The notes beneath the pieces are model-generated. The model made no database searches. It was not told the origin of the DNA and worked only from the letters and a program-made list of their open reading frames with translations. A program made the translations under genes and the position numbers. This document shows, piece after piece, positions 2,054 to 19,473 of a stretch of 32,000 nucleotides of DNA (positions are counted from its first letter, which is position 1; each line of letters starts with the position of its first letter). This DNA is from an uncultured Eubacteriales bacterium (GTDB taxonomy: Bacteria; Bacillota; Clostridia; Oscillospirales; Oscillospiraceae), in the NCBI GenBank assembly GCA_900317375.1, contig ONGJ01000025.1, forward strand, positions 1 to 32,000, read 5' to 3'.

Positions 2054-2856
2054 CTCCGAGCAATTTCGGATCTCCCAGCAATCTGTATGCCTATCTGCAG
2101 TCCTCCATCATCTATTCGGTCGGCGGCTGCGGTCTGTACTTCATCGTCGTGATGGGGCTGTTTGACTTCGCCGTCGGCGCGAACATCGTGCTGTCCTCCA
2201 TTGTCGGCGTCATTCTTTCCAAGCACTTCGGCTATGCCGGATTTATTCTCGGCTGCCTCGGCTGCGGCACGCTGATCGGCTTTCTGATCGGCATGATCTA
2301 CAACAATCTGAACGTCCCGTCGATGATCGTCACGGTCGGCCTGATGCTGATCTTCGAAAGCATCGCGGTCTATGTCGCGGGCGGTGTCAAGCAGACCCTG
2401 GACGAAGGTCTTCGCTTTTTCTCGGGCGCACCCGGCAACATCATTCTGGCGGTCCTGGCCTTCCTGCTGATGTATTTTATCCTGAACTATACAAAGATCG
2501 GAACCTACTGCAGCGCCATCGGCTCAAACGAGTTTGTCGCGAAGAACATGGGCATCAATGTCCGGAAGTATAAGCTGATCGGCTTCATGCTTCTGCACTT
2601 CTTGGCCCTGACCGGCATGAGCACCATGAGCCGCAACTTCCAGCCTCTGATGGGCACGTTTTTTGGCGTGGCATTCCGTAAATATAACATGCCGATCACG
2701 GCAATCGTCATCGGCGAGTTTATCATCTCGATCATCTTCAACGGCTTTGTCGCTCTCGGCGCTCCGACAACCATTCAGAACGTCGTCACCGGTGCAGCCC
2801 TGCTGATCATCGTTACCCTGACCGCCCGCGGTGCCAAGGGCAGCGTGGTAAAGTGA
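1954..2856 (+). CDS. sugar ABC transporter permease (RbsC/AraH-like)
   Basis: Polytopic hydrophobic protein. AAGGAGG at 1933-1939 precedes ATG 1954. The ATG at 1903 used by the ORF track lies inside the terminator hairpin. Confidence 0.8.
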
Positions 2857-2865
2857 GGTGCCGGA

Positions 2866-4410: not shown

Positions 4411-4417
4411 GGAGGCG

Positions 4418-5389: not shown

Positions 5390-5403
5390 CAGGGAGGAAC
5401 CAT

Positions 5404-7037: not shown

Positions 7038-7113
7038 CCGGGTGTAGCGCAGATGGTAGCGCGCTTGAATGGGGTTCAAGAGGCCGCTGGTTCAAATCCA
7101 GTCACTCGGACCA
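7038..7113 (+). tRNA. tRNA-Pro (anticodon GGG)
   Basis: Hand-folded cloverleaf. Acceptor CCGGGTG/CACTCGG (one G-U pair), D stem GCGC/GCGC, anticodon stem CTTGA/TCAAG with loop ATGGGGT. T arm GCTGG-TTCAAAT-CCAGT, discriminator A, encoded CCA. Confidence 0.85.
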
Positions 7114-7155
7114 AAACGCTGAAATCGTTGGTGATTTCAGCGTTTTCTTTTTATT
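7069..7155 (+). repeat. attL: 87-bp direct repeat (tRNA-Pro anticodon loop to 3' end plus terminator)
   Basis: Identical over 87 nt to 19387-19473 by manual alignment. Confidence 0.85.
7116..7152 (+). terminator. rho-independent terminator of tRNA-Pro (inside the att repeat)
   Basis: ACGCTGAAATC-GTTGGT-GATTTCAGCGT followed by TTTCTTTTT. It is duplicated at 19434-19470. Confidence 0.6.
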
Positions 7156-7171
7156 TTTTGGACTTTTCAGG

Positions 7172-7369
7172 AACGCTTGATTTTTGAAGAATGAAGGAGG
7201 AATCAAGCGTGCTGGGAAAAAACCGCATTCAAAAGAATCAAGCGTGTCGTTGGAAGAGTCAAATAATCCCATCTGTTCAGAAAAATCAATGTTTTATTAA
7301 AAAAACCTTTGAGGCAGAAGGGAGGATTCAAGCGTGTCAAATAGAAAACGGATTTTGGTCAATTCAAGC
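7172..7369 (+). promoter_or_regulatory. five copies of the motif AWTCAAGCGYG between attL and the integrase 5' end (candidate arm-type or regulatory sites)
   Basis: ACGCTTGATT (7172, inverted), AATCAAGCGTG (about 7200 and 7235), ATTCAAGCGTG (about 7325, containing the integrase GTG start), ATTCAAGCGCG (about 7359). The first two form a 10-bp hairpin around an AAGGAGG. Confidence 0.4.
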
Positions 7370-8293
7370 GCGTCTGTAAAGGAACAATTCAAGAGTTTCC
7401 TTATAGCAAAGAAGGCAAAAGGGCTTGCTGATAAGACTTTGGCTACTTACGAGCAACATCTTTCAGCGATTGGAAAACATCTTGATTTAATGACAAGCGT
7501 CGAAAATCTAAATACGAACGATTTGGAATCTATGGTTAGTTCCATGCGAGACGATGGGCTTTCTCCTAACACTATCAAAAGTTACACAAACACACTCAAA
7601 TCTTTTTTCTCCTGGTGCAATGAAGAAGGTATCACAAATTTAACAATCACTCGCTATAAAGCAGAAGAGACTGTAAAAGAAACATATACTGACAGCGAAT
7701 TGGAGATTTTGCTGAAAAAGCCAAATCTCCGCAAATGCAAGTTCTCCGAATATCGTAATTGGGTCATTATCTGCCTTTTGGTGAATAACGGTTGTCGCGC
7801 TGCATCTGTCCGTAATATCAAAATAAAGGACTTGGACCTTGAGGGACGAATTATTTATCTTCGGCACACTAAGAATAAGAAAACACAGATTATTCCTCTA
7901 TGTGATACTCTATGCGTAACATTAAAGGAATATCTGCGTATCCGAAACGGTGAAGCTGACGATTATCTGTTCCCAAATGAGTTTGGAGAGCAGCTTTCAG
8001 AAAATGGCCTGCGCTGCACCATAGCCAAGTATAACAAGAAGCGCGGCGTTCAGAAAACTAGTCTCCATATGTTCAGGCACACCTTTGCTAGAAAGTATCT
8101 TGTGGATTGTGGAGGAAATGCTTTTACGCTTCAACATTTACTTGGCCATTCAACCCTTGATATGACAAAGCATTACTGTGCCATTTTTGACGCTGATATC
8201 TCCAAGAATTTTGAAAACTACTCCCCTCTGGCACAAATACAGAATAATAAAAGTAAGATTTCTATGAAATGCAAAAAAACGAGAACAGTATGA
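7334..8293 (+). CDS. tyrosine-type site-specific integrase (phage integrase family)
   Basis: GTG start 8 nt after GGAGGA. SAM-like N-terminal domain. C-terminal catalytic motifs ...LHMFRHTFARKYL...LLGHSTLDMTKHY. TGA stop. Confidence 0.9.
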   Translation: MSNRKRILVNSSASVKEQFKSFLIAKKAKGLADKTLATYEQHLSAIGKHLDLMTSVENLNTNDLESMVSSMRDDGLSPNTIKSYTNTLKSFFSWCNEEGITNLTITRYKAEETVKETYTDSELEILLKKPNLRKCKFSEYRNWVIICLLVNNGCRAASVRNIKIKDLDLEGRIIYLRHTKNKKTQIIPLCDTLCVTLKEYLRIRNGEADDYLFPNEFGEQLSENGLRCTIAKYNKKRGVQKTSLHMFRHTFARKYLVDCGGNAFTLQHLLGHSTLDMTKHYCAIFDADISKNFENYSPLAQIQNNKSKISMKCKKTRTV

Positions 8294-8375
8294 AACATCT
8301 TTCAGCATCTTTTGAATATCTTTGAACATAACAGAACATCTTTTAGCATCTTTCCATCATTTTTGAACATCTCTA
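8294..8375 (+). repeat. array of about 8 degenerate 10-11-bp repeats (GAACATCTTT / AGCATCTTTT), cluster 1; includes the 23-bp direct repeat 8294-8316
   Basis: Units start at roughly 8294, 8304, 8314, 8324, 8334, 8345, 8356 and 8365. AACATCTTTCAGCATCTTTTGAA recurs at 12521-12543. Confidence 0.55.
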
Positions 8376-9019
8376 AAGAAAACAAAAACCGCTCTGAACA
8401 TTTCCTGAAGCATTTTTAAATCCAGGAGACAGTCAGAGCGGTTGTTTATGAGGCAATGAGATGAAATGTGTATTTTCAAAACTCTTGAGCGGAAGTGAAA
8501 ACAGCGAAGCAGCCAGACTTTCAGCGCGACGACAGGTTATTTTTCTTCCTCGTCTTCGTTATCGTTTTGTATTCAATGGGACAAAAGGAAATCTCAGGAA
8601 ATAGGAATAAAAGTGAAGTCGTGGTCGTATGCGAAATCATCAGCAGTGCTTCCTGCCTTTCCAAATATAACAAGTTCCTGTATATCACCAAAAGCATTAC
8701 TATCAATCGTGGTTGTTTCATTTGGAATGTAGATATACCTGAGATTGGGACAGTTAGCAAATGCAAAAGGTCCGACATACTCTGTCTGCTCCGAAAGCTT
8801 CACATAGCGAAATGCTCCACCAGAAAAAGCGTCTTCACTTAATATCTTCAAGGATGCTGGCAAAAAAATGTCAGGAGTTGGAGTAATCAATGTGACACCT
8901 TTGTCAAATTCAATAATTGTAGTAGAACTAGTAATGATGGTTCCAGGTTCTTTGTAGCGAACAATTGACCCCGAAATTTCTGGCTGTGTGTTATGGACAA
9001 GTGCAAATAGCTTTGGGCA

Positions 9020-9800
9020 ATTACTAATGTCCAAGGTTTCAATATTATTAGAAAAACAGTATAACCGTCGCAGGAAGGTACAAAAACTGACATCTAGGCT
9101 TGTCAATTGATTTTCAACACAGGATAAAGAAGTCAGTGCACTATTATTGTTAATATTTAAAACTGTCAACTGATTATAATCACAGACTAATGAAGTTAGT
9201 GCAGTGTTGTTGCTGACATCTAGGCTTGTCAGTTGATTTTCCATACAATCCAGAGAGTTCAGAACAGTGTTATTGCTGACATCTAGGCTTGTCAGCTGAT
9301 TGTTATAACAATTCAGAGAAGTTAGTGCAGTGTTATTGCTGACATTCAGGCTTGTCAGTGGATTTTGTTATTGCTGACATTCAGGCTTGTCAGTGGATTT
9401 GAAGAACAATTAAGAGCCGTCAGTGCGGTGTTATTGCTGACATCTAAGCTTGTAAGTTGATTTCCAAAACAATCCAAGGAAGTCAGCACAGTATTGTTCC
9501 CGACATCTAGGTTTGTAAGTTGGTTGCTAGAACAATCCAAGGAAGTCAGCGCAGTATTATTCCTGACATCTAATCTTGTCAGTTGGTTATTAGGACAATA
9601 CAGAGAAATCAAAGCAGTGTTGTTGCTTACATCTAATCTTGTCAGCTGGTTCCTTGTACAATACAGGGCAGTCAAAGCAGTATTGTTGCTTACGTCTAAT
9701 CTTGTCAGTTGATTACCATAGCAATATAGAGAGGTCAGTGCAGTATTGTTGCTTACATCTAATCTTGTCAGCTGATTATTTCCACAAGATAAATTAGTTA
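9020..9800 (-). repeat. 66-bp in-frame tandem repeats encoding the LRR units
   Basis: Repeated ...GTTATTGCTGACATCTAGGCTTGTCAG... units are visible on the + strand. The period matches the 22-aa LRR. Confidence 0.8.
9331..9400. repeat. perfect 35-bp tandem duplication (9331-9365 = 9366-9400) causing the LRR frameshift
   Basis: TGTTATTGCTGACATTCAGGCTTGTCAGTGGATTT occurs twice back to back. 35 nt is not a multiple of 3, and a TGA follows immediately in the shifted frame. Confidence 0.9.
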
Positions 9801-10104
9801 ATGATGTAAAAAACTCGATTCCTTTAAGAGACGATAATCCACTTTTATTTAGGGAAATACTCCTGCTTCTAGAGATTTCAGTTTCACTCAGTTTTCCATT
9901 ACCGTCTCTGTCACAGTTCACTGACACATAATTACGGAAAACACTATCAGGGAAATTTGTCTCATTGATGTCAACATCATCAGCGAAAGCAGTGGGCGTA
10001 AGAATGAAAATGAATACCAGGCAAAACGACAATAGAACAAAAGGCAATGATTTCTTCATAATAAGACACCTCTGTTTTTGTTCTTAAAAATATCGATTTT
10101 TCAT

Positions 10105-10133
10105 ATTATACCAGATATATTAGCGTGATTCAA
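10105..10133 (-). promoter_or_regulatory. near-consensus promoter of the LRR gene
   Basis: Minus strand reads TTGAAT, 17 nt spacer, TGG-TATAAT (extended -10). Confidence 0.55.
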
Positions 10134-10153
10134 GACCAGATAACACACACTGG

Positions 10154-10717
10154 TTAAAGCAATTCTGCGTGCCCTTCTATCGCTTTTTCTATTCTCTGTG
10201 GTTCAATTCCAATGTAACGCTGTGTAATGGCTGCGCTGCTGTGCTGTAAGAGTCTCTGAACAAGGGCAATGTCATAACCTTTTTTTTGGTAAATCTCTGT
10301 GGCATACCACTTCCTGAATGAATGTGTGCTGATTCCAGAATAGCCAAGGTATTCACAGACATGGGCTAGCTGTTTCTGAATGGCTCTTGTAGTAACAGGG
10401 AACAACAGCGCGTCACGCGCAATGCCGTTCCGCAGACAGTAATTTTCCATATATTGATAGATAACAAGGGGAACAGTGAAAACACGCTGTTTTCCTGTTT
10501 TCTGCTCAGTGATGGAAAGGCGATAGCGCCCACCATCGCTGACAATATCGCAGAGGCGCAGTCTGACAATATCGCTGATTCTGATCCCAAGGTTTCCTTC
10601 CAGCACAAGGGCTGTTGCTATGCGCTCATTGGGACGAAAGCCAATGCCCCCTTCCTTCATTGTCGTGATAATCTCCCTGTATTGTTCAGTGGTCAGGGCT
10701 GTCGTTTTCTTGTTCAT
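10154..10717 (-). CDS. small tyrosine recombinase (catalytic domain only, about 187 aa)
   Basis: ...ISTHSFRKWYATEIY...LLQHSSAAITQRYIG catalytic motifs. GGAGGA lies 6 nt before ATG 10717 (the ORF track starts at 10753). TAA stop. Confidence 0.8.
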   Translation of the reverse strand: MNKKTTALTTEQYREIITTMKEGGIGFRPNERIATALVLEGNLGIRISDIVRLRLCDIVSDGGRYRLSITEQKTGKQRVFTVPLVIYQYMENYCLRNGIARDALLFPVTTRAIQKQLAHVCEYLGYSGISTHSFRKWYATEIYQKKGYDIALVQRLLQHSSAAITQRYIGIEPQRIEKAIEGHAELL

Positions 10718-10844
10718 AGCATCCTCCAAAAGAAAAGAAAGTTCGTTTTTCAAGAAGGGAAAAGTTCATAAAATGCGTTCGTTTTGAAATATTCCCCTTT
10801 CCTATTGCCTTCTGGTGTTCGTATTTGCAGTCTTTTACGAACAT

Positions 10845-11495
10845 CTACGCTGCAATCACTAGTTGTTCGTTGCAATCCAGGCAGGCGATGTTCACAGCCT
10901 TTGTAGCGCGAACGCTCATACCGCAGCAAGGGCAGATGTATTTCCTTGTGCTGGAAGGTTTACGGCCTGCTGTCCCTGTAAAGGTCCCTGCGTGCGTTCC
11001 ACTGACACCAACGGCAATGCTCATCAAATCGTTTCTGTTCAGCCTGATTTCTGTCAGATTGTTCTCTACGCAGAATTCCAAGAGAGAATCAGAAGGAGAA
11101 GTAATGGACCAGCCATAGGAGCTGTGATGCTCTACGACCAAATCACAGGCTTCGGCAGCTGCCTTGAAGTTTTTATTGTGGTAGGTGTTCCCCCTGCTGC
11201 AATCCTTCACGCCGTTCTTATCGTTCCAGTAATGAACCATTTCGTGAAGAAGGGTAGCTACCACGCATTCAATAGGTCTGGACAGCGTGCCTGCGCCGAT
11301 GTTGATTTCCCGCATTCCCTGCTCGCCGTCAACGCTCCAAGCATCAAACAGGGTGTAATGGCCGTAAGCTTTGGGCGTGCTCTGAATCGTGATGACAGGC
11401 CTTGAAAGTGTATTTTCAAAGTATCTGGCATTCAGCAGGTCAAAGATGGTGTTCAGATAGGCAGCTGCTCTGTTGTAGGTGGTAAGCTGTTTCAT
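10845..11495 (-). CDS. SprT-like zinc-metalloprotease domain protein with C-terminal Cys4 zinc ribbon
   Basis: HEMVH motif in an SprT-like context (TLLHEMVHYWN). C-terminal CPCCG...CLDC. It ends in a TAG that behaves as a genuine stop. Confidence 0.7.
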   Translation of the reverse strand: MKQLTTYNRAAAYLNTIFDLLNARYFENTLSRPVITIQSTPKAYGHYTLFDAWSVDGEQGMREINIGAGTLSRPIECVVATLLHEMVHYWNDKNGVKDCSRGNTYHNKNFKAAAEACDLVVEHHSSYGWSITSPSDSLLEFCVENNLTEIRLNRNDLMSIAVGVSGTHAGTFTGTAGRKPSSTRKYICPCCGMSVRATKAVNIACLDCNEQLVIAA

Positions 11496-11558
11496 TTCCT
11501 TTTCTCCCTTCTTTTGGCTGGGGCAGGTTTTGTGTTCCTGCCCCCCTCTCTGTTCATC

Positions 11559-11834
11559 TCACGCGATGGAGAACCGTTTGGAAGCACTCTGCTTGATGAA
11601 GGACTTGTAAACATCAGGCATTGCCTTCTTGAAGCTCGTGGTGTCAAAACGCTGGGTCAGGACGCTGGTCCAACGGATGATGTACTGTCCACATTCCAGC
11701 TCTTCAGTGTCGCGTTCCAGCATCTCCTGCTTGATGGAATCACGAAGGGCTTCGGCTTCAGCTCTGGCTTCTTCCATCAGCTTTTCCCAGCTGTTCAGCT
11801 CCTCAATCTTGTTCAGCAGTTCGTTGTTAGCCAT
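11559..11834 (-). CDS. hypothetical coiled-coil protein (about 91 aa)
   Basis: MANNELLNKIEELNSWEKLMEEARAEAEALRDSIKQEM... An A/G-rich RBS precedes ATG 11834. TGA stop. Confidence 0.55.
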   Translation of the reverse strand: MANNELLNKIEELNSWEKLMEEARAEAEALRDSIKQEMLERDTEELECGQYIIRWTSVLTQRFDTTSFKKAMPDVYKSFIKQSASKRFSIA

Positions 11835-11975
11835 TGTCTTTCTTTCCTTTCTTCTTTTGGATTTGGGAGTGGCCTCGCCGAGAATGTACATGCTGCATAT
11901 CGTTCGCGTCACTCGTATGTCTGAGGCCGTTGTAAGTTTTTAAGCTCGCTCCCTTTCTTGATTGTGTCTACATTA

Positions 11976-12074
11976 TAGCACTAAAATCTCGTGCTGTCTA
12001 TTCGCAAAAGCACTAAATTTTGGTGTTGTTTAGCACTGGTTTTTAGTGCATTTTGTACACTTGATTTTAGTGCT
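11976..12074. promoter_or_regulatory. operator-like array of the GCACTAAA / TTTAGTGC motif between divergent genes
   Basis: TAGCACTAAAAT (11976-11987), AGCACTAAATT (12009-12019), palindrome TAGCACT-N7-AGTGCA (12031-12050). ATTTTAGTGCT (12064-12074) is the exact inverse of the first copy and overlaps the -35. Confidence 0.45.
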
Positions 12075-12089
12075 TTCTTGTGCTATACT
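12061..12089 (+). promoter_or_regulatory. promoter of the XRE-family gene
   Basis: TTGATT (12061-12066), 17 nt spacer, TATACT (12084-12089). Confidence 0.5.
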
Positions 12090-12118
12090 GTGTATGGTGG
12101 AAAAGGAGGCTCTTTTTT

Positions 12119-12352
12119 ATGGCGATACGTTATAAGATAGACATAATGGCTGCATTGAAAGAAAAGGGGTATCCATCTACAAGAATACGAGATGAAAAGC
12201 TGATAGGGCAGTCATATCTACAACAAATCAGGCATGGCGAACTTGTATCATGGAAAACCATAGACACTATCTGTAAACTGCTGGAATGCCAGCCAGGGGA
12301 CATAATAGAATATATTTCTGATGATGCAGCCCCCCCTCCCCCTGCTGAATAA
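12119..12352 (+). CDS. XRE/Cro-type helix-turn-helix transcriptional regulator (77 aa)
   Basis: MAIRYKIDIMAALKEKGYPSTRIRDEKLIGQSYLQQIRHGELVSWKTIDTICKLLECQPGDIIEY. AAGGAGG lies 10 nt before ATG 12119. Confidence 0.75.
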   Translation: MAIRYKIDIMAALKEKGYPSTRIRDEKLIGQSYLQQIRHGELVSWKTIDTICKLLECQPGDIIEYISDDAAPPPPAE

Positions 12353-12469
12353 GGCTTCTCTGTTGCGCTGCTGGTAGGCTGGGGCACGGTTTTCAGGAAG
12401 ATATAAATCTCATTCCCCTTTTTCCTATATATATGGCCTGACAAATTTCCAAAAGCCAAAACAAATCAG

Positions 12470-12547
12470 AACACGATTGAACATCCCTGAACGTGTCAGC
12501 GTGTGAACTGAACGTCTTTTAACATCTTTCAGCATCTTTTGAACATC
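12470..12547 (+). repeat. GAACAT/GAACGT decamer array, cluster 2; includes the direct repeat 12521-12543
   Basis: CAGAACACG, TTGAACATCC, CTGAACGTG, CTGAACGTCTTTT, then AACATCTTTCAGCATCTTTTGAACATC. Confidence 0.5.
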
Positions 12548-12555
12548 ACGGAAAG

Positions 12556-12597
12556 AAAAAGAAAAAACGGAGAATAACGATAAACGCTATCCTCCGT
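12556..12597 (-). terminator. strand-specific rho-independent terminator ending the minus-strand small-gene operon
   Basis: Minus strand reads ACGGAGGATAGCG-TTTAT-CGTTATTCTCCGT followed by TTTTTTCTTTTTCTTT. The two G-U pairs exist only in the minus-strand RNA. Confidence 0.6.
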
Positions 12598-12602
12598 CAG
12601 GG

Positions 12603-12791
12603 TTACCATTCCCATTCTTCTATCTCATCCCAGTCAATGCTTCTGTCGTTCAAATCAATATAATGCCAGCCTAGCCATTCATCAAAGAAATAATTCATCA
12701 TCTGACTGGTGACTTCCTTCATCACGTTATAAAGGAATTCTTCAATCCAGGACTATTCTCGTTTCTTTTTCTTTTTCTCTTCGTCTGTCAT
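12603..12791 (-). CDS. hypothetical small acidic protein, 62 codons with one in-frame TAG (codon 13)
   Basis: AAGAGG lies 7 nt before ATG 12791. Translation MTDEEKKKKKRE[TAG]SWIEEFLYNVMKEVTSQMMNYFFDEWLGWHYIDLNDRSIDWDEIEEWEW, TAA stop. TAG at 12753-12755. Confidence 0.4.
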
Positions 12792-12802
12792 TGCTTAGCC
12801 TC

Positions 12803-12988
12803 TTACTGGTTATAATGATTGCGCAGATGCCTTTCCAGTATCTCTCTGTCTTTTGGACTCTCTTCAGCCCAAAGAATCTGATAGGGTTTGACATCTTCCT
12901 GAAGATGAACGAAATGGTCATAGTAGAGAACTGGTCCCTCTGTCAGCTAATCCAGAACGCTGCTCTTATGTTTCTATATTGGATTCAT
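12803..12988 (-). CDS. hypothetical small protein, 61 codons with two in-frame TAG
   Basis: The AGGTGA RBS overlaps the upstream TGA stop. Translation MNPI[TAG]KHKSSVLD[TAG]LTEGPVLYYDHFVHLQEDVKPYQILWAEESPKDREILERHLRNHYNQ, TAA stop. TAGs at 12974-12976 and 12947-12949. No alternative start after the TAGs. Confidence 0.35.
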
Positions 12989-12997
12989 ATTCTTTTT

Positions 12998-13357
12998 TCA
13001 CCTACTTCGTCTTTTTTTTATTTTTTCGCAATACGCTCTATAGTTGTCTTGCTAGCTCAAGAAACGCAAATTGCTGGCTTTGTTATTGCTGACATCACCG
13101 TCAATGTGGTCCACTGTGTTCTTGTGCTATGGATCATCGTTATCACAGAACGCCGCAGCCACTAAACGACTGACAAGAAAATGTCTGCTTACTCCGTTAT
13201 GGGACAAACAGACACGGTAATATCCTTTATTATTAGGGAACGCTGTCAGAATCTTTTCTTTCTTGTGTTTCAGGGATTTGATTCTGCCAAGGGAACTAAC
13301 ATAGTATTTTTCATAACCGTCTATCGGTTTCCAGATTTCTTTTTCTATTGGAATCAT
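12998..13357 (-). CDS. NUMOD4 + HNH (HNH_3-type) homing-endonuclease-like protein, frame intact but with two in-frame TAG
   Basis: MIPIEKEIWKPIDGYEKYYVSSLGRIKS...GYYRVCLSHNGVSRHFLVSRLVAAAFCDNDDP[TAG]HKNTVDHIDGDVSNNKASNLRFLS[TAG]QDNYRAYCEKIKKRRSR, TGA stop. The ORF track reports only the first 76 aa. TAGs at 13127-13129 and 13052-13054. Confidence 0.7.
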
Positions 13358-13445
13358 CTCCTTTTCTATTGTTTGAGAAATAGGAAAGAAGAATTAAACA
13401 AGTTTGACAAGAAGCAGAGTACAAAAAAAGAGAGGATTTGTAATT

Positions 13446-13925
13446 ATGAAGGCAAAAGCGATCGCAAAAGAATACGGTTTTGACCCAGACAGATTTCAGT
13501 CTTTTGTTTGGCGTCAATCAGAAATCCCAACAAAAGGATTTAGTGGAGATTCTATTGATGATGCAGATATACCCAAGATGGTAGAACTGTATAAAAAAAC
13601 AGAGGGGGAAGTTCATCGAATTGAAGAAATAAAAGAAAAAGACCTTCAATCGGCTTTGCCAAGAATAAAGTATACAAGTATCATTAACTCCTTTGTCAGT
13701 GTAGAAGGTGTAGGAGCGTATACAAACTATGTTTACTACAGTGTTTTGATCGTCTTTGATGATGGAACAGCTAAAATCGTAGAAGGAAACAGCGACACAA
13801 TTGCTCCTCTGCTGGTTTATTTACGCACTCCTGTAGATGAAATGAAAGAAATAAAACAGATTATCGCGCATTTGTCTTCTGATATTAATACTATCAAAGG
13901 GGTGTTAGATGAGAAGATAAAATAA
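13446..13925 (+). CDS. hypothetical protein (159 aa), the only plus-strand gene in this part of the island
   Basis: AGAGAGGA RBS before ATG 13446 (the ORF track starts at 13404). TAA stop. No family recognised. Confidence 0.55.
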   Translation: MKAKAIAKEYGFDPDRFQSFVWRQSEIPTKGFSGDSIDDADIPKMVELYKKTEGEVHRIEEIKEKDLQSALPRIKYTSIINSFVSVEGVGAYTNYVYYSVLIVFDDGTAKIVEGNSDTIAPLLVYLRTPVDEMKEIKQIIAHLSSDINTIKGVLDEKIK

Positions 13926-14055
13926 TGCTGATGTGAAGTCTTTGGGACCTTTTAAGAGATGATACAATTATAAAGGTTCATTTGTGATAATTCTGGATCT
14001 ATCGATTTCCATGATGAAAACAGATTGGATCGTTCATAATGCCCATATAAGATTT

Positions 14056-14100
14056 GATCCTCAAGGTCTTCTATTTAATGGAAAACCTTGAGGATCTTTT
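14056..14100 (+). terminator. hairpin terminator between convergent genes
   Basis: GATCCTCAAGGT-N17-ACCTTGAGGATC followed by TTTT. Confidence 0.5.
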
Positions 14101-14509
14101 ATTCTGCACTTGCCAGAATTTCTTCCAGCGTTACTGTTAGCGCATGAGAGTTATAATCATACTTGCGCCAGTTAGATTCCTTTGGAATCTGTGTGTTCAG
14201 TGCTGGTAGATACTGCCTGATATAACGCCCTTCAGCTTCTCCTATTTCTTCTACTACATCGGAAAGCTTGGACGAAGTCGCATAGCAAACCACATCAAAC
14301 TGAACAGCGTGCCCCTTCTGTTTTGCTTCTGCCAGGATCTGATACTTGTGACTTTTCGGCTGTCGGAAAGCAAAGTAGTGTTCTGCCAGCCTCCACAGCA
14401 TATCTTTGCTCTTGCCTATGTATACAATTATCCCATCGATTGTAATCTTATATATACCAGCGTGCTGGAAGCGCGCTGCAAACCCTCTGCGCTATAGCAT
14501 CTTGTACAT
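14099..14509 (-). CDS. GIY-YIG nuclease domain protein with an in-frame TAG at codon 6
   Basis: MYKML[TAG]RRGFAARFQHAGIYKITIDGIIVYIGKSKDMLWRLAEH...EAEGRYIRQYLPALNTQ. GIY-N9-YIG, the conserved R, and E...N are all present. The ORF-track ATG (14401) lies after the YIG motif. TAG at 14492-14494. TAA stop. Confidence 0.7.
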
Positions 14510-14522
14510 ATTTTCTACGTAA

Positions 14523-15266
14523 TTAGCCAATTCTCTCTTCCTTTCCAGAAATATAACGTGTCAGTTCATACACTTCCGCAAGGCTGCCATTCAGATTCCA
14601 GGCTGTGAAGTGGAAAGTCTTGCAGGAGTAATAACAGCAATGGTCCCTGTCCCATAGAAAATTAACCACATTTTTCCATGCTTCACTTCTGGCCTCATCA
14701 TAGGAAAGCTTTCTGCTCCCCTTCATAATCTGCCAAGTGATTTCTTCTATTAGCGCTGAACGCTCTTTGAAATAGGTTTGCGCTTCTTCCTCTGTAACGA
14801 GCTGGCGCTTCTTGAATCCTGCTTCGTCAATGTAGGTTTTCCAGTAACTACCTTCGCTGCCCTTGCACATAATGCCCTGATCTATGAGTTTCTTGCACCA
14901 TCTGCTTAAAGTACGGCTTGTATAGAATCTGCCTGAGAACTTCCAATATTCCTCTTCGCGAACCTTCCATGGCATACAGTCAAAACCAGGAACATCATTA
15001 AACGCAGTGACGAAGCAGGCGAACGAGTACATATCAACCTGAATATCAACTTGGAACTGTCGGATCAGGATTTCCTGTAATCTTTCTTCTGGTAGATCAG
15101 GAACATGGGTAATTGCTACACCGTTGCGCATCCAGTCATATCCATAGCCCCACTTCGTCAGAACAGACTCTACATTTCTTTTAAAGTGTTTTACATCAGC
15201 TAAGCTCACGCTTGTGATTTCAGCAATTTCCTTGCGGCTATAGAACCGCATTTCTAACTATTTCAT
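14523..15266 (-). CDS. hypothetical protein with HTH-like segments (possible DNA-binding or replication function); possible in-frame TAG at codon 3
   Basis: 242-aa ORF from ATG 15251 has no RBS. GAAAGG lies 8 nt before ATG 15266, giving MK[TAG]LEMRFYSRKEIAEITSVSLADVKHFKRN... TAG at 15258-15260. TAA stop. Confidence 0.6.
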
Positions 15267-15343
15267 AATAAGAACCTTTCGAGTATCATAATACTTTTTA
15301 CAACTTTGATTTGATTTCTTTACAAGAATAAAGCAACTATAGA

Positions 15344-15421
15344 TTTTGAATATACACTTTCAATCCCCCCAAAGGTTTTCCAGATATACTTTTATAAATG
15401 TGAAATCCTTTGGAGGGGATT
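15344..15421 (-). promoter_or_regulatory. repeated intergenic cassette A: stem-loop (AATCCCCCCAAAGG/CCTTTGGAGGGGATT) plus palindromic promoter-like box TTGAAAGTGTATATTCAAAA
   Basis: The 34-nt stretch 15344-15377 is identical to 15761-15794. On the minus strand the hairpin is followed by TTGAAA, 16 nt spacer, TATAGT. Confidence 0.5.
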
Positions 15422-15426
15422 ATCAG

Positions 15427-15735
15427 TTAACCAATATATCCGTTATTCAGTACTGCTTTTGCATCTGAATAGAACTCCCAATAGGTTAAATCAAAAACCA
15501 ACCAAATGATATAATCATGAATAAGAATTGAAACATCATCATAATCGTTCATATCATATTCAATATTTACAGGATGGGCACACACGTAGTCTTTCATTTG
15601 AAGTAGTTCAGCATTAGTAAACTCATCGCAAAACTCTTCCCACTCCTTTTCGTTTCTATTAAGGATTTTTTGATTCTGGGAGATACTAAGGTCAAGATTT
15701 TCTTCGATTTTCTTTTCATCACAGACAACAATCAT
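15427..15735 (-). CDS. hypothetical acidic protein (102 aa)
   Basis: ORF with GAAAGGAA RBS and TAA stop. No family recognised. Confidence 0.55.
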   Translation of the reverse strand: MIVVCDEKKIEENLDLSISQNQKILNRNEKEWEEFCDEFTNAELLQMKDYVCAHPVNIEYDMNDYDDVSILIHDYIIWLVFDLTYWEFYSDAKAVLNNGYIG

Positions 15736-15760
15736 TTTATAATTCCTTTCAGATTATTAT

Positions 15761-15837
15761 TTTTGAATATACACTTTCAATCCCCCCAAAGGTTGTCCTT
15801 TCTAATCTATAATTGTCAGGAAAACGTTTGGGGGGAT
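15761..15837 (-). promoter_or_regulatory. repeated intergenic cassette B (stem-loop ATCCCCCCAAAGGTT/AACGTTTGGGGGGAT plus TTGAAAGTGTATATTCAAAA box)
   Basis: Same 34-nt core as cassette A. On the minus strand the box is followed by an ATAAT-type -10. Confidence 0.5.
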
Positions 15838-15845
15838 CTATACAA

Positions 15846-16070
15846 TTAGCAAGCTCTTGGATCAAGCCCCAGAGAATGACGAATGAATCTTGCTGGGATT
15901 ACTTTATGCATATTACATTCATCACAGCAACGACCTTCTTTCGTGATTGGAGCTGGATTATTGCCATATCCAATAAATGTAGTACCGCAGATACAGCATT
16001 TCTGCTTACGGTTGGGATAAGGATTAGTGACTGCGAGAATATAAGCTGGATTAATAAATTCATTTTTCAT
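15846..16070 (-). CDS. small Cys-rich zinc-ribbon protein (74 aa)
   Basis: CCICG...CCDEC cysteine pairs. AAGGAG RBS. TAA stop. Confidence 0.6.
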   Translation of the reverse strand: MKNEFINPAYILAVTNPYPNRKQKCCICGTTFIGYGNNPAPITKEGRCCDECNMHKVIPARFIRHSLGLDPRAC

Positions 16071-16110
16071 TTTAATAAACTCCTTATAATTATTATTTTT
16101 TTAATTTTTT

Positions 16111-16164
16111 CTCCAAAGGTTTTCATACTTATTCTATTACAGGAAAGGAAAACGTTTGGGGGGG
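16111..16164 (-). promoter_or_regulatory. repeated intergenic stem-loop C (CTCCAAAGGTTTTC/GAAAACGTTTGGGGGGG)
   Basis: Third copy of the CCAAAGG/CCTTTGG hairpin family, without the TTGAAAGTG box. Confidence 0.45.
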
Positions 16165-16167
16165 TTG

Positions 16168-16446
16168 TTATATAGCGTACAGGATTTCATATAACCTGCG
16201 TACTTCGGCATCCATTCTATCGTGGTATTCTGCTTCATACAGAAGGAACAGAATATAGTGGTAGATAATCTGTTCCCTGTAATCTGGCTGTGAAGGGTTG
16301 TACTTCTCTATGGGATAGTGGTTTTTTATCATCACTTGGCGCATCGCGCAGATTTCCTGATTGGTGATTGCGCATGCAAGACAATGAAAATTCTATTTGT
16401 CCCAAGACAAGATTTTTTGTTTACTTGATATCAGCAGAGAATTCAT
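16168..16446 (-). CDS. hypothetical protein, 92 codons with an in-frame TAG at codon 18
   Basis: Strong RBS AAGGGGGTGA before ATG 16446. Translation MNSLLISSKQKILSWDK[TAG]NFHCLACAITNQEICAMRQVMIKNHYPIEKYNPSQPDYREQIIYHYILFLLYEAEYHDRMDAEVRRLYEILYAI, TAA stop. TAG at 16393-16395. Alternative reading: a 17-aa leader plus an internal start at ATG 16344. Confidence 0.45.
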
Positions 16447-16579
16447 TTCACTGATTCACCCCCTTTCGTAGTTTTGTGTTATGCTGATTGCTTTTCTGTA
16501 GAATGCACGAATGAGAAAACAATCTTTGTTGCTTCCTTATTCGTTTTAGAAATTTGTTTTTCCCCTTTTTTCTATATAT

Positions 16580-16608
16580 ATTATAACAAATTTTTTATAA
16601 AAAGTCAA
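16580..16608 (-). promoter_or_regulatory. consensus promoter heading the TAG-containing gene block
   Basis: Minus strand reads TTGACT, 17 nt spacer, TATAAT, followed by a leader of about 125 nt before ATG 16446. Confidence 0.6.
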
Positions 16609-16649
16609 AAAATCGTCAAACAACGGCGATTTTTCGAACTTTTTAAGGG

Positions 16650-16684
16650 AAAAAGAAAAACTCTGTGGAAAAGGTCCACAGAGT
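16650..16684 (-). terminator. rho-independent terminator after the WYL-led genes
   Basis: Minus strand reads ACTCTGTGGA-CCTTT-TCCACAGAGT followed by TTTTTCTTTTT. Confidence 0.6.
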
Positions 16685-16713
16685 ATTATGCGCTATTCAT
16701 TTGTTCACCTGCT

Positions 16714-17199
16714 TTATGCAGTCTTTTTGTTTGCATTTTCCAGATAATCTGAAAAGCTAATCACATCAGGGAGCTTTTCAGTATCCAGATAGAACAGAGG
16801 CTCTTCTCTGAACTTAGGAAACTGAGCCATAAACCACTGAGCAACAGGCGCATAGGGTGAAAGGCATATTGCTTCGGCCTTTTCACGCAGTTTGTGATAC
16901 TCATCCAGATACTTCTGGCTGTTATCAAGCGCATTCATAAATCTCTCCATGCGCTCATAGGAAAGGTTTTTGGTAGGATAGTAGGAGGTTCTCTTACCAT
17001 CCTGCCCCTTCCCCTTGTAGGAAGTGGGTGAAGTGCGTGTGCGATTCACAATTTCCAGATTGGGAAAATCATGCAGGAACTGACGTACAAGTTTATATTC
17101 AGCAGATCCAGGGTTGTTGGCTGCATCAGCAAAAGCAGCAGTCAGAGTGAGAGTCTGGTGGGCCAGGTCCAGCTTATAGCCCTTCATTTTTGTAGCCAT
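16714..17199 (-). CDS. hypothetical protein (161 aa), weak N-terminal paralog of the upstream gene
   Basis: MATKMKGYKLDLAHQTLTLTAAFADAANN... GGGGG RBS before ATG 17199 (the track starts at 17214). TAA stop. Confidence 0.6.
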   Translation of the reverse strand: MATKMKGYKLDLAHQTLTLTAAFADAANNPGSAEYKLVRQFLHDFPNLEIVNRTRTSPTSYKGKGQDGKRTSYYPTKNLSYERMERFMNALDNSQKYLDEYHKLREKAEAICLSPYAPVAQWFMAQFPKFREEPLFYLDTEKLPDVISFSDYLENANKKTA

Positions 17200-17227
17200 T
17201 TTAAATACCCCCATTTATGTTTTTTGC

Positions 17228-17731
17228 TTAAAGATTCACAACAGGCTTGAGTTCATTCTCTTCGGCTTCGCCGATGACAGTATTATTATCTGTCGTAGGC
17301 TTAGCTTTAGCACAAGTTGCGCTGTTGAGCATCTGCTTATAGCGATAATCATCAACACAACTCTTGGCTTCAGCATAGTTGAAGCTTTTGTAAGCATCAA
17401 AAAGCACGCGCTTGACAAGTGGGTATTTGCTCTCACGCATCTTCCCAGCATAATCGATTACTTCATTCACTGTTTCCAGTGTGATGTAATCTTTGACTGC
17501 CGTAAGGTAGTCCACGATAAAGGGAATGTCCATCCCCTTATAGGTCTGCTTGGGCTTAGCAGGCTTCTCAGGCTGCTTGATTTCGATACCATAGGTAGGG
17601 TGCTTCTCCATCAAAGCGATGAGTTCGTCATAGACAGGGCCATAACCCTTGCTAGCTTTGTCAAAGCTGTTCTGGGTTCCGACGATGGTCTTGTTGGCAA
17701 AGTTAAGGGTAAAGCGTGCATTCTTAGACAT
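17228..17731 (-). CDS. hypothetical protein (167 aa)
   Basis: MSKNARFTLNFANKTIVGTQNSFDKASKGYG... GGAG lies 8 nt before ATG 17731 (the track starts at 17743). TAA stop. Confidence 0.6.
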   Translation of the reverse strand: MSKNARFTLNFANKTIVGTQNSFDKASKGYGPVYDELIALMEKHPTYGIEIKQPEKPAKPKQTYKGMDIPFIVDYLTAVKDYITLETVNEVIDYAGKMRESKYPLVKRVLFDAYKSFNYAEAKSCVDDYRYKQMLNSATCAKAKPTTDNNTVIGEAEENELKPVVNL

Positions 17732-17910
17732 ATTAGTCTCCATTCTCTGTTTTTCTGAGTTTATCAGCTCTCATTTTTTTATTCTTGGAAGGGGTTTTCT
17801 TTTCTTTGTTTCCCCCTCCTCTTTACAATTATATTTTACCAGATTTGAAAAATATTACAATATGTTCAGGCGTTTCAGCAGTACATAAGCGGCCTTCTGA
17901 CTTTATTCTA

Positions 17911-17942
17911 AAACAATTATAGCAGGGCTAAAAACCCTGCTA
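17911..17942 (-). terminator. hairpin after the WYL gene (possible attenuator)
   Basis: Minus strand reads TAGCAGGG-TTTTTAG-CCCTGCTA followed by TAATTGTTTT. Confidence 0.4.
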
Positions 17943-17955
17943 TTTCTTGTGATTT

Positions 17956-18990
17956 TTACTGATAATGCGCTTCTATTCTTTTGATGTAGTCTTTGAATCT
18001 CCCTGCTGTTTCTGGTGGGTCTACAATGACTATTTTTTCACCTAGACCACATACCCAACCATAGAAGTTTTCGCTTTCCACGATGAATGTTTTGATGCTG
18101 AAATGCTTGTCATCTATTGGAGTGTATACTGTGTCAGGTCCTTTGGGAAAGCGTTCCAGCATTGCATCCAATAGGGAGTTTTCAAATTGAAGAGTAATAC
18201 GTCCTGCTTTGCCACCGATGAACATTCCAAAAGTCTGTTTCGCATAATCGCTAATCCCCAACCGTTTGAACTTTTCTTCCCCTTCTCTTGGCTCATCCGT
18301 AATCTTTACATCATCCATCCTGTCTATTCTGTATGCCCTGATTTGGTGGTAGGTATCATCATAGCCTATCAGGTAGTGGTTTCCATCTGAAAGGACAACA
18401 TTGAAAGGGCTGACAACATACCGTTTTCCTTTCCTGCGGTTTTCCGTTTGAGTGATATTCACTGGACTATGGCGAGTATAGAGAAAAGATATTTTCTGAT
18501 TATTTCTTATAGCGAGTTTTATTCTACGAAGGTATTTTAACATCTTCCTTTCCGTGTATTTCGGTCGTTCTGCTACGATGTACTCGCTTTTCAGGGTGTC
18601 TGCTTGATACTTGCTACACAGTTTTTTAAGTTTTTCAATAAGTTCTTCTGCTTCTGGTCGTGATATGAAATTAGCGGAGGCGACACATTCTGCTATCGTT
18701 TCCAAGTCTTCAAATGGCAGAAAGCGAGTGCCCAAATAGATAGGCTTGCCTTTTCCCCCTTGGACATCCAACACAGCGTCAAACGCTGCGTCTCTTCCTC
18801 CACGCAAAAGGTCAATGTCTCTGCGGATAGAATGATTTTCTGCTTCAATTCCTTTGCTATTCAGGTATTGCTCTACATCCTTTAACAGAACGCCGTGAAG
18901 CATATTGCCTTTTTCATCGGCGTCAGTTTCTCGCATAAGATAATCGGCGATGTAAAAGATTTTCAGTTTCTGACGGTCGCTCTTTGGCAT
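17956..18990 (-). CDS. WYL-domain transcriptional regulator (wHTH-WYL-C-terminal extension, YafY/BrxR-like architecture)
   Basis: 344 aa. N-terminal HTH-like region. Central ...YVVSPFNVVLSDGNHYLIGYDDTYHQIRAYRIDRM... typical of WYL domains. GGGGGA RBS. TAA stop. Confidence 0.8.
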   Translation of the reverse strand: MPKSDRQKLKIFYIADYLMRETDADEKGNMLHGVLLKDVEQYLNSKGIEAENHSIRRDIDLLRGGRDAAFDAVLDVQGGKGKPIYLGTRFLPFEDLETIAECVASANFISRPEAEELIEKLKKLCSKYQADTLKSEYIVAERPKYTERKMLKYLRRIKLAIRNNQKISFLYTRHSPVNITQTENRRKGKRYVVSPFNVVLSDGNHYLIGYDDTYHQIRAYRIDRMDDVKITDEPREGEEKFKRLGISDYAKQTFGMFIGGKAGRITLQFENSLLDAMLERFPKGPDTVYTPIDDKHFSIKTFIVESENFYGWVCGLGEKIVIVDPPETAGRFKDYIKRIEAHYQ

Positions 18991-19019
18991 TGTGTCGTAT
19001 CCCCCTGTTTTCAGAGATT

Positions 19020-19115
19020 TTGAAAAGATTATAACAGATGTTCCAGACGCAAGGCAAGATGTTCAACAATGCTGGCACGATGATAAAAGATGCTGGAAAG
19101 ATGTTCAATGATGTT
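19020..19115 (-). repeat. GAACATC/AGCATCTTTT array, cluster 3 (inverted relative to clusters 1 and 2), overlapping the WYL-gene promoter
   Basis: Minus strand reads CCGAACATCATTGAACATCTTTCCAGCATCTTTT...AGCATTGTTGAACATCTTGCCTTGCGTCTGGAACATCTGTTATAAT. TTGCCT, 18 nt spacer, TATAAT, with a GAACATC box inside the spacer. Confidence 0.5.
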
Positions 19116-19120
19116 CGGTT

Positions 19121-19140
19121 TTGAAAGTGTATATTCAAAA
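19121..19140 (+). promoter_or_regulatory. third copy of the palindromic box TTGAAAGTGTATATTCAAAA, here on the plus strand facing attR
   Basis: Exact reverse complement of the first 20 nt of the cassette core at 15344 and 15761. Confidence 0.45.
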
Positions 19141-19386
19141 AACAACCATTCGTTTTCTGATAAAAAAACGAACAGAGAAAGTCCCTGTTCGTTGGTAAAG
19201 ACAGCGTTATCTATGGAAAGTTCGTATTTGTATGGCTGAAAGTTCCATTATTGGATACTTTTTGTTAACATTATAGGCATTATCTTGAATAAAAGTGCTG
19301 CCCTGATATAATGGAAATACAGAAGTCAAGTGTTTCCTGATTGTGGTGATTTCAGCGACGGGGTTGCGCCAGTGGTTAGACGGTTG

Positions 19387-19473
19387 ATGGGGTTCAAGAG
19401 GCCGCTGGTTCAAATCCAGTCACTCGGACCAAAACGCTGAAATCGTTGGTGATTTCAGCGTTTTCTTTTTATT
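19387..19473 (+). repeat. attR: 87-bp direct repeat (partial tRNA-Pro 3' half plus terminator)
   Basis: Identical to 7069-7155. It is preceded (about 19355-19386) by a degenerate tRNA 5'-half-like sequence that cannot form an acceptor stem. Confidence 0.85.

Follow-up and report, generated by a model that had tools for sequence, protein, structure and literature searches.

Stop-codon recoding is known from phages and prophages, where it has been proposed to time late genes or the choice between lysis and lysogeny. The closest described systems are the Topaz phages, reported as prophages of Oscillospiraceae that are recoded at TAG but keep it out of their integrases (Borges et al., bioRxiv 10.1101/2021.08.26.457843; later in Nat Microbiol 2022). 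Topaz and Garnet phages read TAG as Gln in a standard-code host of the Firmicutes/Oscillospiraceae, integrate into tRNA genes and comprise recoded and standard-code members mixed within a lineage; their recoding was proposed to be a lysis-lysogeny or expression switch. The crAss-like, Lak, Jade and Agate phages use two codes block by block, with standard-code genes early and recoded genes later. Phage satellites (PICI/SaPI, P4-like, PLE, cf-PICI) are small, integrase-bearing elements at tRNA sites that lack virion genes. We analysed a window of 32,000 nucleotides from an uncultured Eubacteriales bacterium of the Oscillospiraceae (assembly GCA_900317375.1, contig ONGJ01000025.1, positions 1 to 32,000; coordinates below refer to this window unless another contig is named) and found an integrative island that has features in common with each of these systems. 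New is the recoding in a small non-viral island, where TAG is both sense codon and terminator depending on the operon and no decoding machinery is visible. In full-text searches of the literature we found no report of a recoding non-viral island or satellite, or of a conserved amber lock at codon 2 or 3.

The island is complete and occupies positions 7156-19386 (12.3 kb) between perfect 87-bp direct repeats, which a repeat search located with 100% identity. The left copy (attL, 7069-7155) consists of the 3' part of a host tRNA-Pro(GGG) gene (7038-7113, plus strand; ARAGORN, Rfam tRNA 63 bits), the integration target, together with a terminator hairpin; the right copy (attR) lies at 19387-19473. 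At attL the GC content falls from ~58% to ~40%, and it is 36-49% in the island versus 55-68% in the surrounding DNA. A TAG-free tyrosine integrase of 319 amino acids (aa) with the stop codon TGA (7334-8293, plus strand; Pfam Phage_integrase 4.8e-30) stands beside the tRNA attachment site, as in Topaz-like phages. Pfam and PHROG searches found no capsid, tail, lysis or terminase genes in the island, and a small island with integrase and att sites and without virion genes is what PICI-like satellites look like. The initial annotation had described an outer element of about 8 kb without structural genes; the absence of these genes held, while the size is too low. A copy of the island from another sample (L020) was 99.995% identical. 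We conclude that the element is a phage-derived integrative island at tRNA-Pro. It is an independent mobile element, as seen from the perfect att repeats, the near-identical copy elsewhere, and the several integration sites and integrases across its family.

On the minus strand the order is WYL regulator, g171, g166, terminator, promoter, g92, g74cys, g102, fam247, GIY-YIG nuclease, HNH nuclease, g62 and terminator, followed toward attL by HTH_26 on the opposite strand, g117, a SprT-like gene, a short recombinase, a leucine-rich repeat (LRR) gene and the plus-strand integrase. The integrase, the WYL-g171-g166 operon, HTH_26, the operon of g117, SprT, short recombinase and LRR gene, and g173 either lack TAG in their reading frames or use it as terminator. 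On the other side stands a module of the seven minus-strand genes from g92 to g62, which extends from a promoter at 16608-16580 to a terminator at 12598-12566 and carries six in-frame TAGs in five of its genes. Of the 839 module codons six are TAG, and of the 2,245 remaining codons of the island none is (Fisher P=4e-4). Thus the earlier suggestion that the TAG genes are confined between this promoter and this terminator was borne out, and codon counts agreed with it that the integrase, WYL, g171 and g166 are TAG-free. No TGA or TAA is in frame in the module, while its other two frames contain 71 TGA, 36 TAA and 25 TAG. The five TAG genes and six TAGs come from TAG-aware gene models; the initial annotation had not itemised the genes concerned. 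With the standard code these five genes were shortened or lost their N-termini, and reading TAG as sense restored all five.

The first module gene, g92 (16168-16446, minus strand, 92 aa), has its TAG at codon 18 (16393-16395) and the Shine-Dalgarno sequence AAAGGGGG before the ATG at 16446; the alignment with its L007 ortholog runs across the TAG. The gene for fam247, a predicted tandem winged-helix DNA-binding protein of 247 aa (14523-15266, minus strand), has TAG at codon 3 (15258-15260). It is followed by a stand-alone GIY-YIG nuclease of 143 aa (14099-14530, minus strand) with a TTG start and TAG at codon 13 (14492-14494), which matched a PHROG endonuclease with 1.8e-9 and Pfam GIY-YIG with 19.3 bits, under the cut-off of 22.6. 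The HNH endonuclease (12998-13357, minus strand, 119 aa; NUMOD4 and HNH_3 in Pfam) contains two TAGs at codons 77 (13127-13129) and 102 (13052-13054), both spanned by the PHROG HNH profile with E=7e-35. The small acidic protein g62 (12603-12791, minus strand, 62 aa) has TAG at codon 13 (12753-12755), which is also present in its L021 ortholog, and an AAGAGG Shine-Dalgarno sequence before its TAG-aware ATG. Shine-Dalgarno motifs preceded the TAG-aware starts of g92, fam247, GIY-YIG and g62. At the standard-code starts they were missing for fam247 and g62, and only weak purine runs were seen for g92 and GIY-YIG; for fam247 the motif was found solely before 15266. The sequence context of the in-frame TAGs showed no convincing motif.

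Comparison with orthologs indicates that the module TAGs are sense codons, most likely for Gln. We used homology-anchored stop counts, because a comparison of open reading frame (ORF) coverage under alternative stop sets was too coarse, spurious ORFs becoming longer under any relaxed code. The fam247 family (54 database clusters, unannotated) has the N-terminal consensus M-x-Q-L-E-x-R-F-Y with a nearly invariant Gln-3, where the window protein reads M-K-TAG-L-E-M-R-F-Y. We collected 18 fam247 loci from genomes, viral contigs and assemblies and 44 more from metagenomes. Many of them had TAG at codon 3, others had it at codon 2 or codon 12, and it was seen at a few more positions, including a consensus Gln; other in-frame stops were essentially nil with a single one inside one high-scoring segment pair (L144). 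The GIY-YIG orthologs start at the same residue and have TAGs elsewhere. RVA#HY (# for TAG) is common to three loci and LNT#IP aligns with the conserved Gln of LNTQIP. In HNH, TAGs were seen at eight positions across six loci. All these orthologs were full length solely when TAG was read as sense.

Island L021, a close variant whose HNH region is 89% identical at the DNA level, shares the DDP#HK and KRE#SW TAGs with the window and provides swaps in both directions. At the second HNH TAG, FLS#QDN of the window corresponds to FLSQRDN in L021, and L007 likewise has Gln there; VTSQMM of the window g62 corresponds to VTS#IM in L021. At variable positions some TAGs stand opposite E, K or A. None of the island genes matched a protein family related to pyrrolysine in these searches, and the TAGs align with Gln or Glu. 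TAG accounted for ~13% of the Gln-type codons in the module.

The ratio of nonsynonymous to synonymous substitution rates (dN/dS) was 0.05-0.23 overall, with 0.08 for fam247, 0.12 for g62 and 0.05-0.23 for HNH, which shows that the recoded genes are under purifying selection. Eleven related islands had 18 TAGs in 3,660 codons of module orthologs versus 0 in 7,001 codons of other orthologs (P=4e-9), again without in-frame TGA or TAA in the module orthologs, and the 44 further metagenome loci showed the same confinement. Decay of the TAG genes, which the initial annotation had considered, was ruled out because only TAG is in frame, frameshifts are absent, dN/dS is well below 1, TAG positions are conserved and TAG and Gln replace each other. 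Taken together, we are almost certain that the two-code architecture is real.

Outside the module the alignments indicate that TAG is a genuine terminator. The gene for the SprT-like zinc metalloprotease, which has a zinc ribbon at its C-terminus (10845-11495, minus strand; Pfam SprT-like 3.1e-7), ends in TAG at 10845-10847. In its orthologs the stop codon follows the same residue and is TAG (L005, L007), TGA (L013) or TAA (L011). The neighbouring Xer-like tyrosine recombinase, which has 199 aa and the catalytic domain only (10154-10753, minus strand; Pfam 1.2e-18, NCBIfam), ends in TAA in the window, whereas its orthologs have TGA or TAG in this place. Because the two decoding regimes are split by operon, they point to two temporally separate translational states and not to a permanently suppressing host.

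The island belongs to a family of islands, roughly 7-12 kb in size and hitherto unannotated, that are written in two genetic codes. A tblastn search with all window proteins against the collected loci gave an architecture of the g171/g166 pair, fam247, GIY-YIG and/or HNH, HTH_26, g117, a variable recombinase cassette, cargo, WYL and integrase; g92, g74cys and g62 were present in part of the family only. The gene order is circularly permuted between loci as set by the location of the att site. One island (L002) is a 6,912-nt unit between repeats that contain tRNA-Val, and the window integrase is 33% identical to that of the phage contig L003 described below. The island-specific genes (g166/g171, WYL, HTH_26, g117) occurred in >40 loci, which are spread over several integration sites and have different integrases. 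Loci derived from genomes belonged to Oscillospiraceae and other Clostridia (Candidatus Limivicinus, Pseudoflavonifractor, Faecalibacterium).

The search for relatives of the module outside of islands led to phages. The module DNA (blastn) and fam247 (tblastn) had no match in 50,697 GenBank phage records, and a single-protein fam247 scan of viral contigs gave no confirmed relative, whereas an alignment-based scan found relatives. L003 is a 22.6-kb phage contig with a distant fam247 homolog. Its integrase and a divergent neighbour are TAG-free, 17 of the 18 downstream genes have 1-8 in-frame TAGs, and the database proteins of this contig read Gln at the TAGs. A search with its large terminase yielded 73 viral contigs of ~20-24 kb. 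Sixteen of them are TAG-recoded (L003, L031, L068, L071-74, L076-80, L083, L089, L091, L093), L081 is TGA-recoded and all others use the standard code; the integrases of the clade are always TAG-free. In size, host family, attachment at tRNA-Thr and the lack of TAG in their integrases these phages agree with the 'Topaz' clade (bioRxiv 10.1101/2021.08.26.457843).

The recoded phages L068, L072 and L074 have homologs of fam247 and GIY-YIG with 3-5 TAGs each, and the fam247 of L074 starts with M-TAG-Q-I-E. The promoter region of the module (16553-16614) was the only non-coding DNA common to island and phages, with 79-89% identity over 37-62 nt in eight phage-type loci by blastn; in the five of these with a located integrase it lies between the integrase and the lytic operon. 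The shared promoter and the fam247 and GIY-YIG homologs indicate that the TAG module has its homologous counterpart in the early-lytic region of temperate phages that are recoded and belong to the same host group. Homologs of the packaging and structural genes of L003 were found neither in the window nor in 11 related islands, and terminase or portal matches were missing from the further metagenome loci.

A source of TAG decoding was not apparent in the island. ARAGORN detected only tRNA-Pro(GGG) in the 32-kb window, and Rfam at E<=1 gave no other tRNA-like RNA in the island. Release factors and aminoacyl-tRNA synthetases were absent from the island genes of the window in Pfam, NCBIfam and PADLOC, and no suppressor tRNA was found by ARAGORN or Rfam in the scanned stretches of related islands. 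Hence, the island has no recognised gene for a code change, which a recoded element would be expected to carry. These searches agree with the initial annotation, which had seen by eye no tRNA with a CUA anticodon, release factor or synthetase; a suppressor tRNA that would make the island autonomous, which it had also considered, was not detected by ARAGORN or Rfam. It is quite probable that the module needs TAG decoding from beyond the recognisable genes of the island.

We propose that a TAG-recoded phage supplies this decoding. The TAG-free genes would be readable by the host as they are, and the module would be transcribed from a strong promoter resembling a Topaz-like early-lytic promoter. 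In a standard-code cell translation would halt after 2 residues of fam247, 12 of GIY-YIG, 17 of g92 and 12 of g62, and HNH would be halted before its catalytic motif; the DNA-binding and nuclease module would be off even when transcribed. It would be translated only if TAG-to-Gln decoding were supplied in trans, and the likeliest supplier would be a TAG-recoded temperate phage from the same host family, either infecting the cell or induced in it. In that case the stop codon would serve as a lock that couples replication, mobilisation or interference of the island to a helper. The placement of TAG in fam247 is gate-like: many diverged islands have it at codon 2/3, and so does the recoded phage L074. 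We give slightly less than an even chance to the view that a TAG-recoded phage supplies the decoding and that the island is a code-gated satellite. More tentative is the wider view of a satellite family locked by code, with an amber codon at fam247 codon 2/3 and in the nucleases, the TAG=Gln switch of the helper as induction signal and lineages that match the code of local helpers. Supply in trans, the identity of the supplier and the role of the module are the parts of the model that we infer.

As to the role of the module, the AlphaFold2 (AF2) model of fam247 showed tandem winged-helix domains with a mean pLDDT of 94, and a comparison with a viral fold library returned uncharacterised gut-phage proteins only. 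The protein may be the DNA-binding initiator or activator of the module, and DNA of the island or of a helper could be the substrate of the two nucleases.

Several observations weigh against the helper model. Two of the module genes, g74cys (15846-16070, minus strand; small, with two CxxC pairs and an L007 ortholog of 73% identity) and g102 (15427-15735, minus strand), are TAG-free in the window copy. Against the PDB the fam247 fold gave only weak winged-helix matches (E>0.1) and no confident Rep match. In a sub-lineage of islands (L008, L009, L114-L129, L142), mostly from human-gut assemblies and from Pseudoflavonifractor sp. MSJ-30, fam247 is TAG-free and no match to GIY-YIG or HNH was found; thus the lock is not essential to this type of element. 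No specific helper phage was identified. Searches of the island with Pfam, PHROGs and NCBIfam recognised no small terminase gene (terS), cos/pac site or gene for capsid-size redirection, and membership in the satellites is unproven in view of the missing terS, cos/pac site, capsid-remodelling gene and proven replication module.

A further objection comes from the phages themselves. A tRNA(CUA) was found in none of the 16 TAG-recoded Topaz-like contigs. Contig IMGVR_UViG_3300045988_091535 (22,602 nt) was read over its whole length as L074 and L103; tRNA genes were missing from it even at E<=1, and its TAG-aware ORFs, which were read by eye only, showed no evident release factor or synthetase. 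A suppressor hidden in the gene-poor region of L074 was considered and rejected, as what lies there is a TAG-free gene of 116 aa and a tRNA-Thr(CGT) fragment from the 5' end. The initial annotation had assumed that recoded phages carry suppressor tRNAs, which fails for these closest relatives. Suppressor tRNAs were found in only ~40% of TAG-recoded genomes (Borges et al., bioRxiv 10.1101/2021.08.26.457843). Because the closest recoded phages lack a suppressor as well, its absence from the island does not by itself show dependence on a helper. The decoding factor could be encoded by the host, or be a small unrecognised protein or RNA.

This leads to the strongest competitor of the helper model, in which recoding is self-sufficient or gated by the host through an unrecognised factor other than a canonical tRNA, encoded by the host (and possibly stress-induced) or by a TAG-free gene of the island. 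An anti-RF1 protein, a tRNA-Gln modifier or a non-canonical RNA are examples, and g166/g171, g117, g173 and the SprT-like protein would be candidates in the island. A fully read recoded phage without tRNA, release factor or synthetase means that a non-tRNA or host route must exist, and the scarcity of suppressor tRNAs among recoded genomes points in the same direction. Several conserved TAG-free genes of unknown fold lie directly upstream of the module, in an operon headed by a WYL regulator of a family that is often responsive to DNA damage or ligands. On the other hand, besides the integrase no TAG-free gene of the island is homologous to a phage gene, so that no common candidate for a protein switch is visible; in a profile comparison of g166/g171 with the family of the TAG-free gene beside the phage integrase hhalign gave a probability of 7% (P=0.005), by which homology is unproven. 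If the host suppressed TAG constitutively, the strict avoidance of TAG in the other island genes would have no point, and the stop codons of SprT and the recombinase would be read through. Some long ORFs in the host flanks end in TAG, a noisy count as antisense ORFs were picked in the high-GC DNA. We regard a host- or island-encoded factor as unlikely.

A further explanation dispenses with recoding. The TAGs could be ordinary stops read at a low level by near-cognate tRNA-Gln, an attenuator by which the basal expression of a toxic nuclease and regulator module is kept very low. A C after TAG is a weak termination context, and C followed 42% of island TAGs (24 sites, not independent of each other); a suppressor was found nowhere, and the island genes have just 1-3 TAGs each. 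Yet, TAG is scattered like a sense codon at the fraction of Gln-type codons given above, and yields would be negligible with two TAGs in HNH and 4-8 per gene in phage homologs. The strict confinement to the module and the TAG terminators elsewhere suggest two decoding states, so that leaky readthrough appears improbable. Least probable is that the island is a relic, namely what deletion left of a Topaz-like prophage (integrase and early region), with the TAG genes as functionless leftovers: fam247, GIY-YIG and the promoter are common to Topaz-like phages and the LRR cargo gene of the window is disrupted, but the low dN/dS of the TAG genes, conserved synteny, the spread of island-specific genes over >40 loci, several sites and different integrases, perfect att repeats and the lack of any phage structural remnant in any island argue against it.

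If the helper model is set against the known systems, the island resembles phage satellites beyond size and site, having regulators near the integrase, a module homologous to a temperate-phage early region and an expression that is plausibly helper-conditional. It differs in having no recognised terS, cos/pac site, capsid-size redirection or primase-replicase. Satellites are induced by anti-repressor proteins or by transcription activators of the helper; we know of no satellite in which a change in the genetic code is the induction mechanism. With Topaz and Garnet phages the island shares fam247, GIY-YIG and the early promoter. However, the Topaz-like phages have 22-24 kb and their main recoded genes are capsid, tail, portal, terminase and lysis genes, which the island of 7-12 kb lacks, and unlike them the island has TAG-free genes of its own (WYL, g166/g171, HTH_26, g117) and a TAG terminator in a second operon. 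The crAss-like, Lak, Jade and Agate phages carry their own suppressor tRNA, sometimes with RF2, RF1 or tryptophanyl-tRNA synthetase (TrpRS), in contrast to the island and its closest phages. The island nucleases are similar to free-standing HNH (NUMOD4/HNH_3) and GIY-YIG homing-type endonucleases of phages in their domains, their small stand-alone genes and their place in a phage-like early region. Unlike these they are not located in an intron, intein or conserved target. They are syntenic and coupled with fam247 and thus look like fixed parts of the module, not like selfish insertions.

The operon upstream of the module is headed by a TAG-free HTH-WYL-WCX regulator of 344 aa (17956-18990, minus strand; Pfam WYL 5.6e-13, PADLOC WYL 2.7e-25), identical on 14 contigs. 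Among ten island proteins scanned with PADLOC, a scan that did not include the HNH and GIY-YIG nucleases, no defence protein was found. The WYL regulator stands without a recognised adjacent defence system, unlike in WYL-regulated anti-phage defence islands. Downstream of it are the TAG-free tandem paralogs g171 (17228-17743) and g166 (16714-17214; together 16714-17743, minus strand), which form an island-specific family with 81 database clusters, 0 of them annotated. The pair was present in nearly every island and missing from phages. A fold search with the AF2 model of g171 gave no PDB analogue, and NCBIfam and PADLOC matched only WYL and the Xer-like recombinase among the island unknowns. 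The terminator that had been noted after the WYL-led genes was located at 16684-16660 (minus strand).

The module promoter (16580-16608, minus strand) has the consensus extended -10 form TTGACT-17-TATAAT, as had been read initially, with an upstream TG. It matched 11 of 12 positions and was among the two best matches in the island. At the distal end the terminator (12566-12598, minus strand) forms a 14-pair stem followed by a T-run. The start of GIY-YIG overlaps the stop codon of fam247, an overlap kept in L005, from which translational coupling of GIY-YIG to fam247 is predicted. Directly after the GIY-YIG stop a 20-nt inverted repeat (14056-14096; 90% complementary, 1-nt gap) is probably the terminator of the transcript from g92 to GIY-YIG.

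Upstream of fam247 an inverted repeat (CCCCnCCAAAGG...CCTTTGGGGGG) is followed by a 21-nt box TTGAAAGTGTATATTCAAAA (15344-15430, minus strand), and a second inverted repeat with a copy of the box lies upstream of g102 (15760-15837, minus strand). The repeats at 15363-15430 and 15780-15837 (minus strand) have the form CCCCCCAAAGGTTTTCC-(18-30 nt AT-rich loop)-GGAAAACNTTTGGGGGG, with a half-site at 16146-16163. In 13 of 16 loci (L001, L003, L005-L012, L015, L016, L074), islands and phages alike, such an inverted repeat precedes fam247; its arms covary with 13-24 Watson-Crick pairs and the loop often contains a TATAAT-like box. The sense and antisense folds are equally stable, and an RNA hairpin and a palindromic operator are therefore indistinguishable. 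The promoter-like box TTGAAAGTGTATATTCAAAA of 20-21 nt was located at 15344-15363 and 15760-15780 (minus strand) and at 19121-19141 (plus strand), with degenerate copies at 11402-11420 and 8465-8480. The copy upstream of WYL has the opposite orientation and faces attR, hence the integrase once the island is circularised; an analogous repeated box was seen upstream of the WYL gene of L002.

The motif GAACATCTTT(T/C)AGCATCTT forms clusters after the integrase (8279-8388) and after the module terminator (12506-12564), and an inverted cluster upstream of WYL (19053-19123). They could be operators or recombinase-binding sites, and the first two flank the swappable cassette described below as direct repeats. 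In addition, a 22-nt repeat TTCCCCTTTTT(T/C)CTATATATAT with 95% identity is found at 16560-16581, where it overlaps the -10 region and start of the module promoter, and at 12413-12434 between the module terminator and HTH_26. The latter copy suggests a second, similarly regulated promoter.

The segment from 8.4 to 12.5 kb could be taken for a nested foreign element of 4 kb. This was rejected because the block of HTH_26, g117, SprT and recombinase recurs in the same position elsewhere (L005, L007, L011 and L013, with 78-84% identity); the segment is a recurrent, swappable cassette of the island family. HTH_26 is a TAG-free Cro/C1-type regulator (12080-12352, plus strand; Pfam 2.9e-10) kept in 7 island loci. 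The conserved TAG-free g117 (11559-11912, minus strand; orthologs in L005, L008, L011 and L013) is co-operonic with SprT and the short recombinase, the latter being 79-84% identical across islands. L104 has a DUF6809-resolvase cassette where the other islands have the g117-SprT-short recombinase block. The block has a GC content of 44-49%, above the rest of the island, and SprT and recombinase are 78-84% identical between islands versus 40-60% for fam247, which suggests recent exchange of the cassette between islands.

The cargo gene for a secreted BspA-like LRR protein (8594-10059, minus strand; Pfam LRR_4, LRR_5) consists of two ORFs in the window (9355-10059 and 8594-9244) and of a single 476-aa gene in L020. 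The split results from a 35-nt tandem duplication (AAATCCACTGACAAGCCTGAATGTCAGCAATAACA) with a junction near 9365; the two explanations are a phase-variation-like frameshift within a 63-nt repeat array and a difference in assembly. Between GIY-YIG and HNH lies the TAG-free gene g173 (13404-13925, plus strand), without a homolog in other loci. In L007 an unrelated TAG-free gene of 146 aa (11410-11850, minus strand of that locus) occupies the same slot, also on the opposite strand. The interval resembles a variable cargo slot within the recoded module.

The phages showed some further features. In 18 loci, recoded and standard-code, a TAG-free gene of ~116-123 aa lies beside the integrase, divergent from the early promoter (L074 3969-4319 and L003 1429-1800, both minus strand). 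It has no recognisable HTH and is a candidate for a lysogeny regulator or a code-switch factor. L003 begins with the 3' end of a tmRNA gene (1-29), probably its attachment site, and the tRNA-Thr(CGT) 5' fragment in L074 (3700-3760) is a remnant of attP that matches the tRNA-Thr site reported for Topaz prophages. L081 (IMGVR_UViG_3300032007_000850) has six in-frame TGAs in terminase, portal and MuF (2560-5839), of which three align with Trp. A single terminase lineage (57-79% identity) thus contains members recoded at TGA, members recoded at TAG and members with the standard code, and the TAG-free sub-lineage of islands parallels the mixed codes of this clade.

Such satellites, if the model is true, would be invisible to gene callers that use the standard code; here, five of the seven module genes were truncated or missed. 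Annotation pipelines should let the genetic code vary by module in islands as well as in phage contigs. If decoding is indeed supplied in trans, the family would be a compact test system, with a two-codon leader, TAG and a conserved protein, for code change in small phages without suppressor tRNA. One mobile element would then depend on another through the genetic code, which would make its expression conditional.

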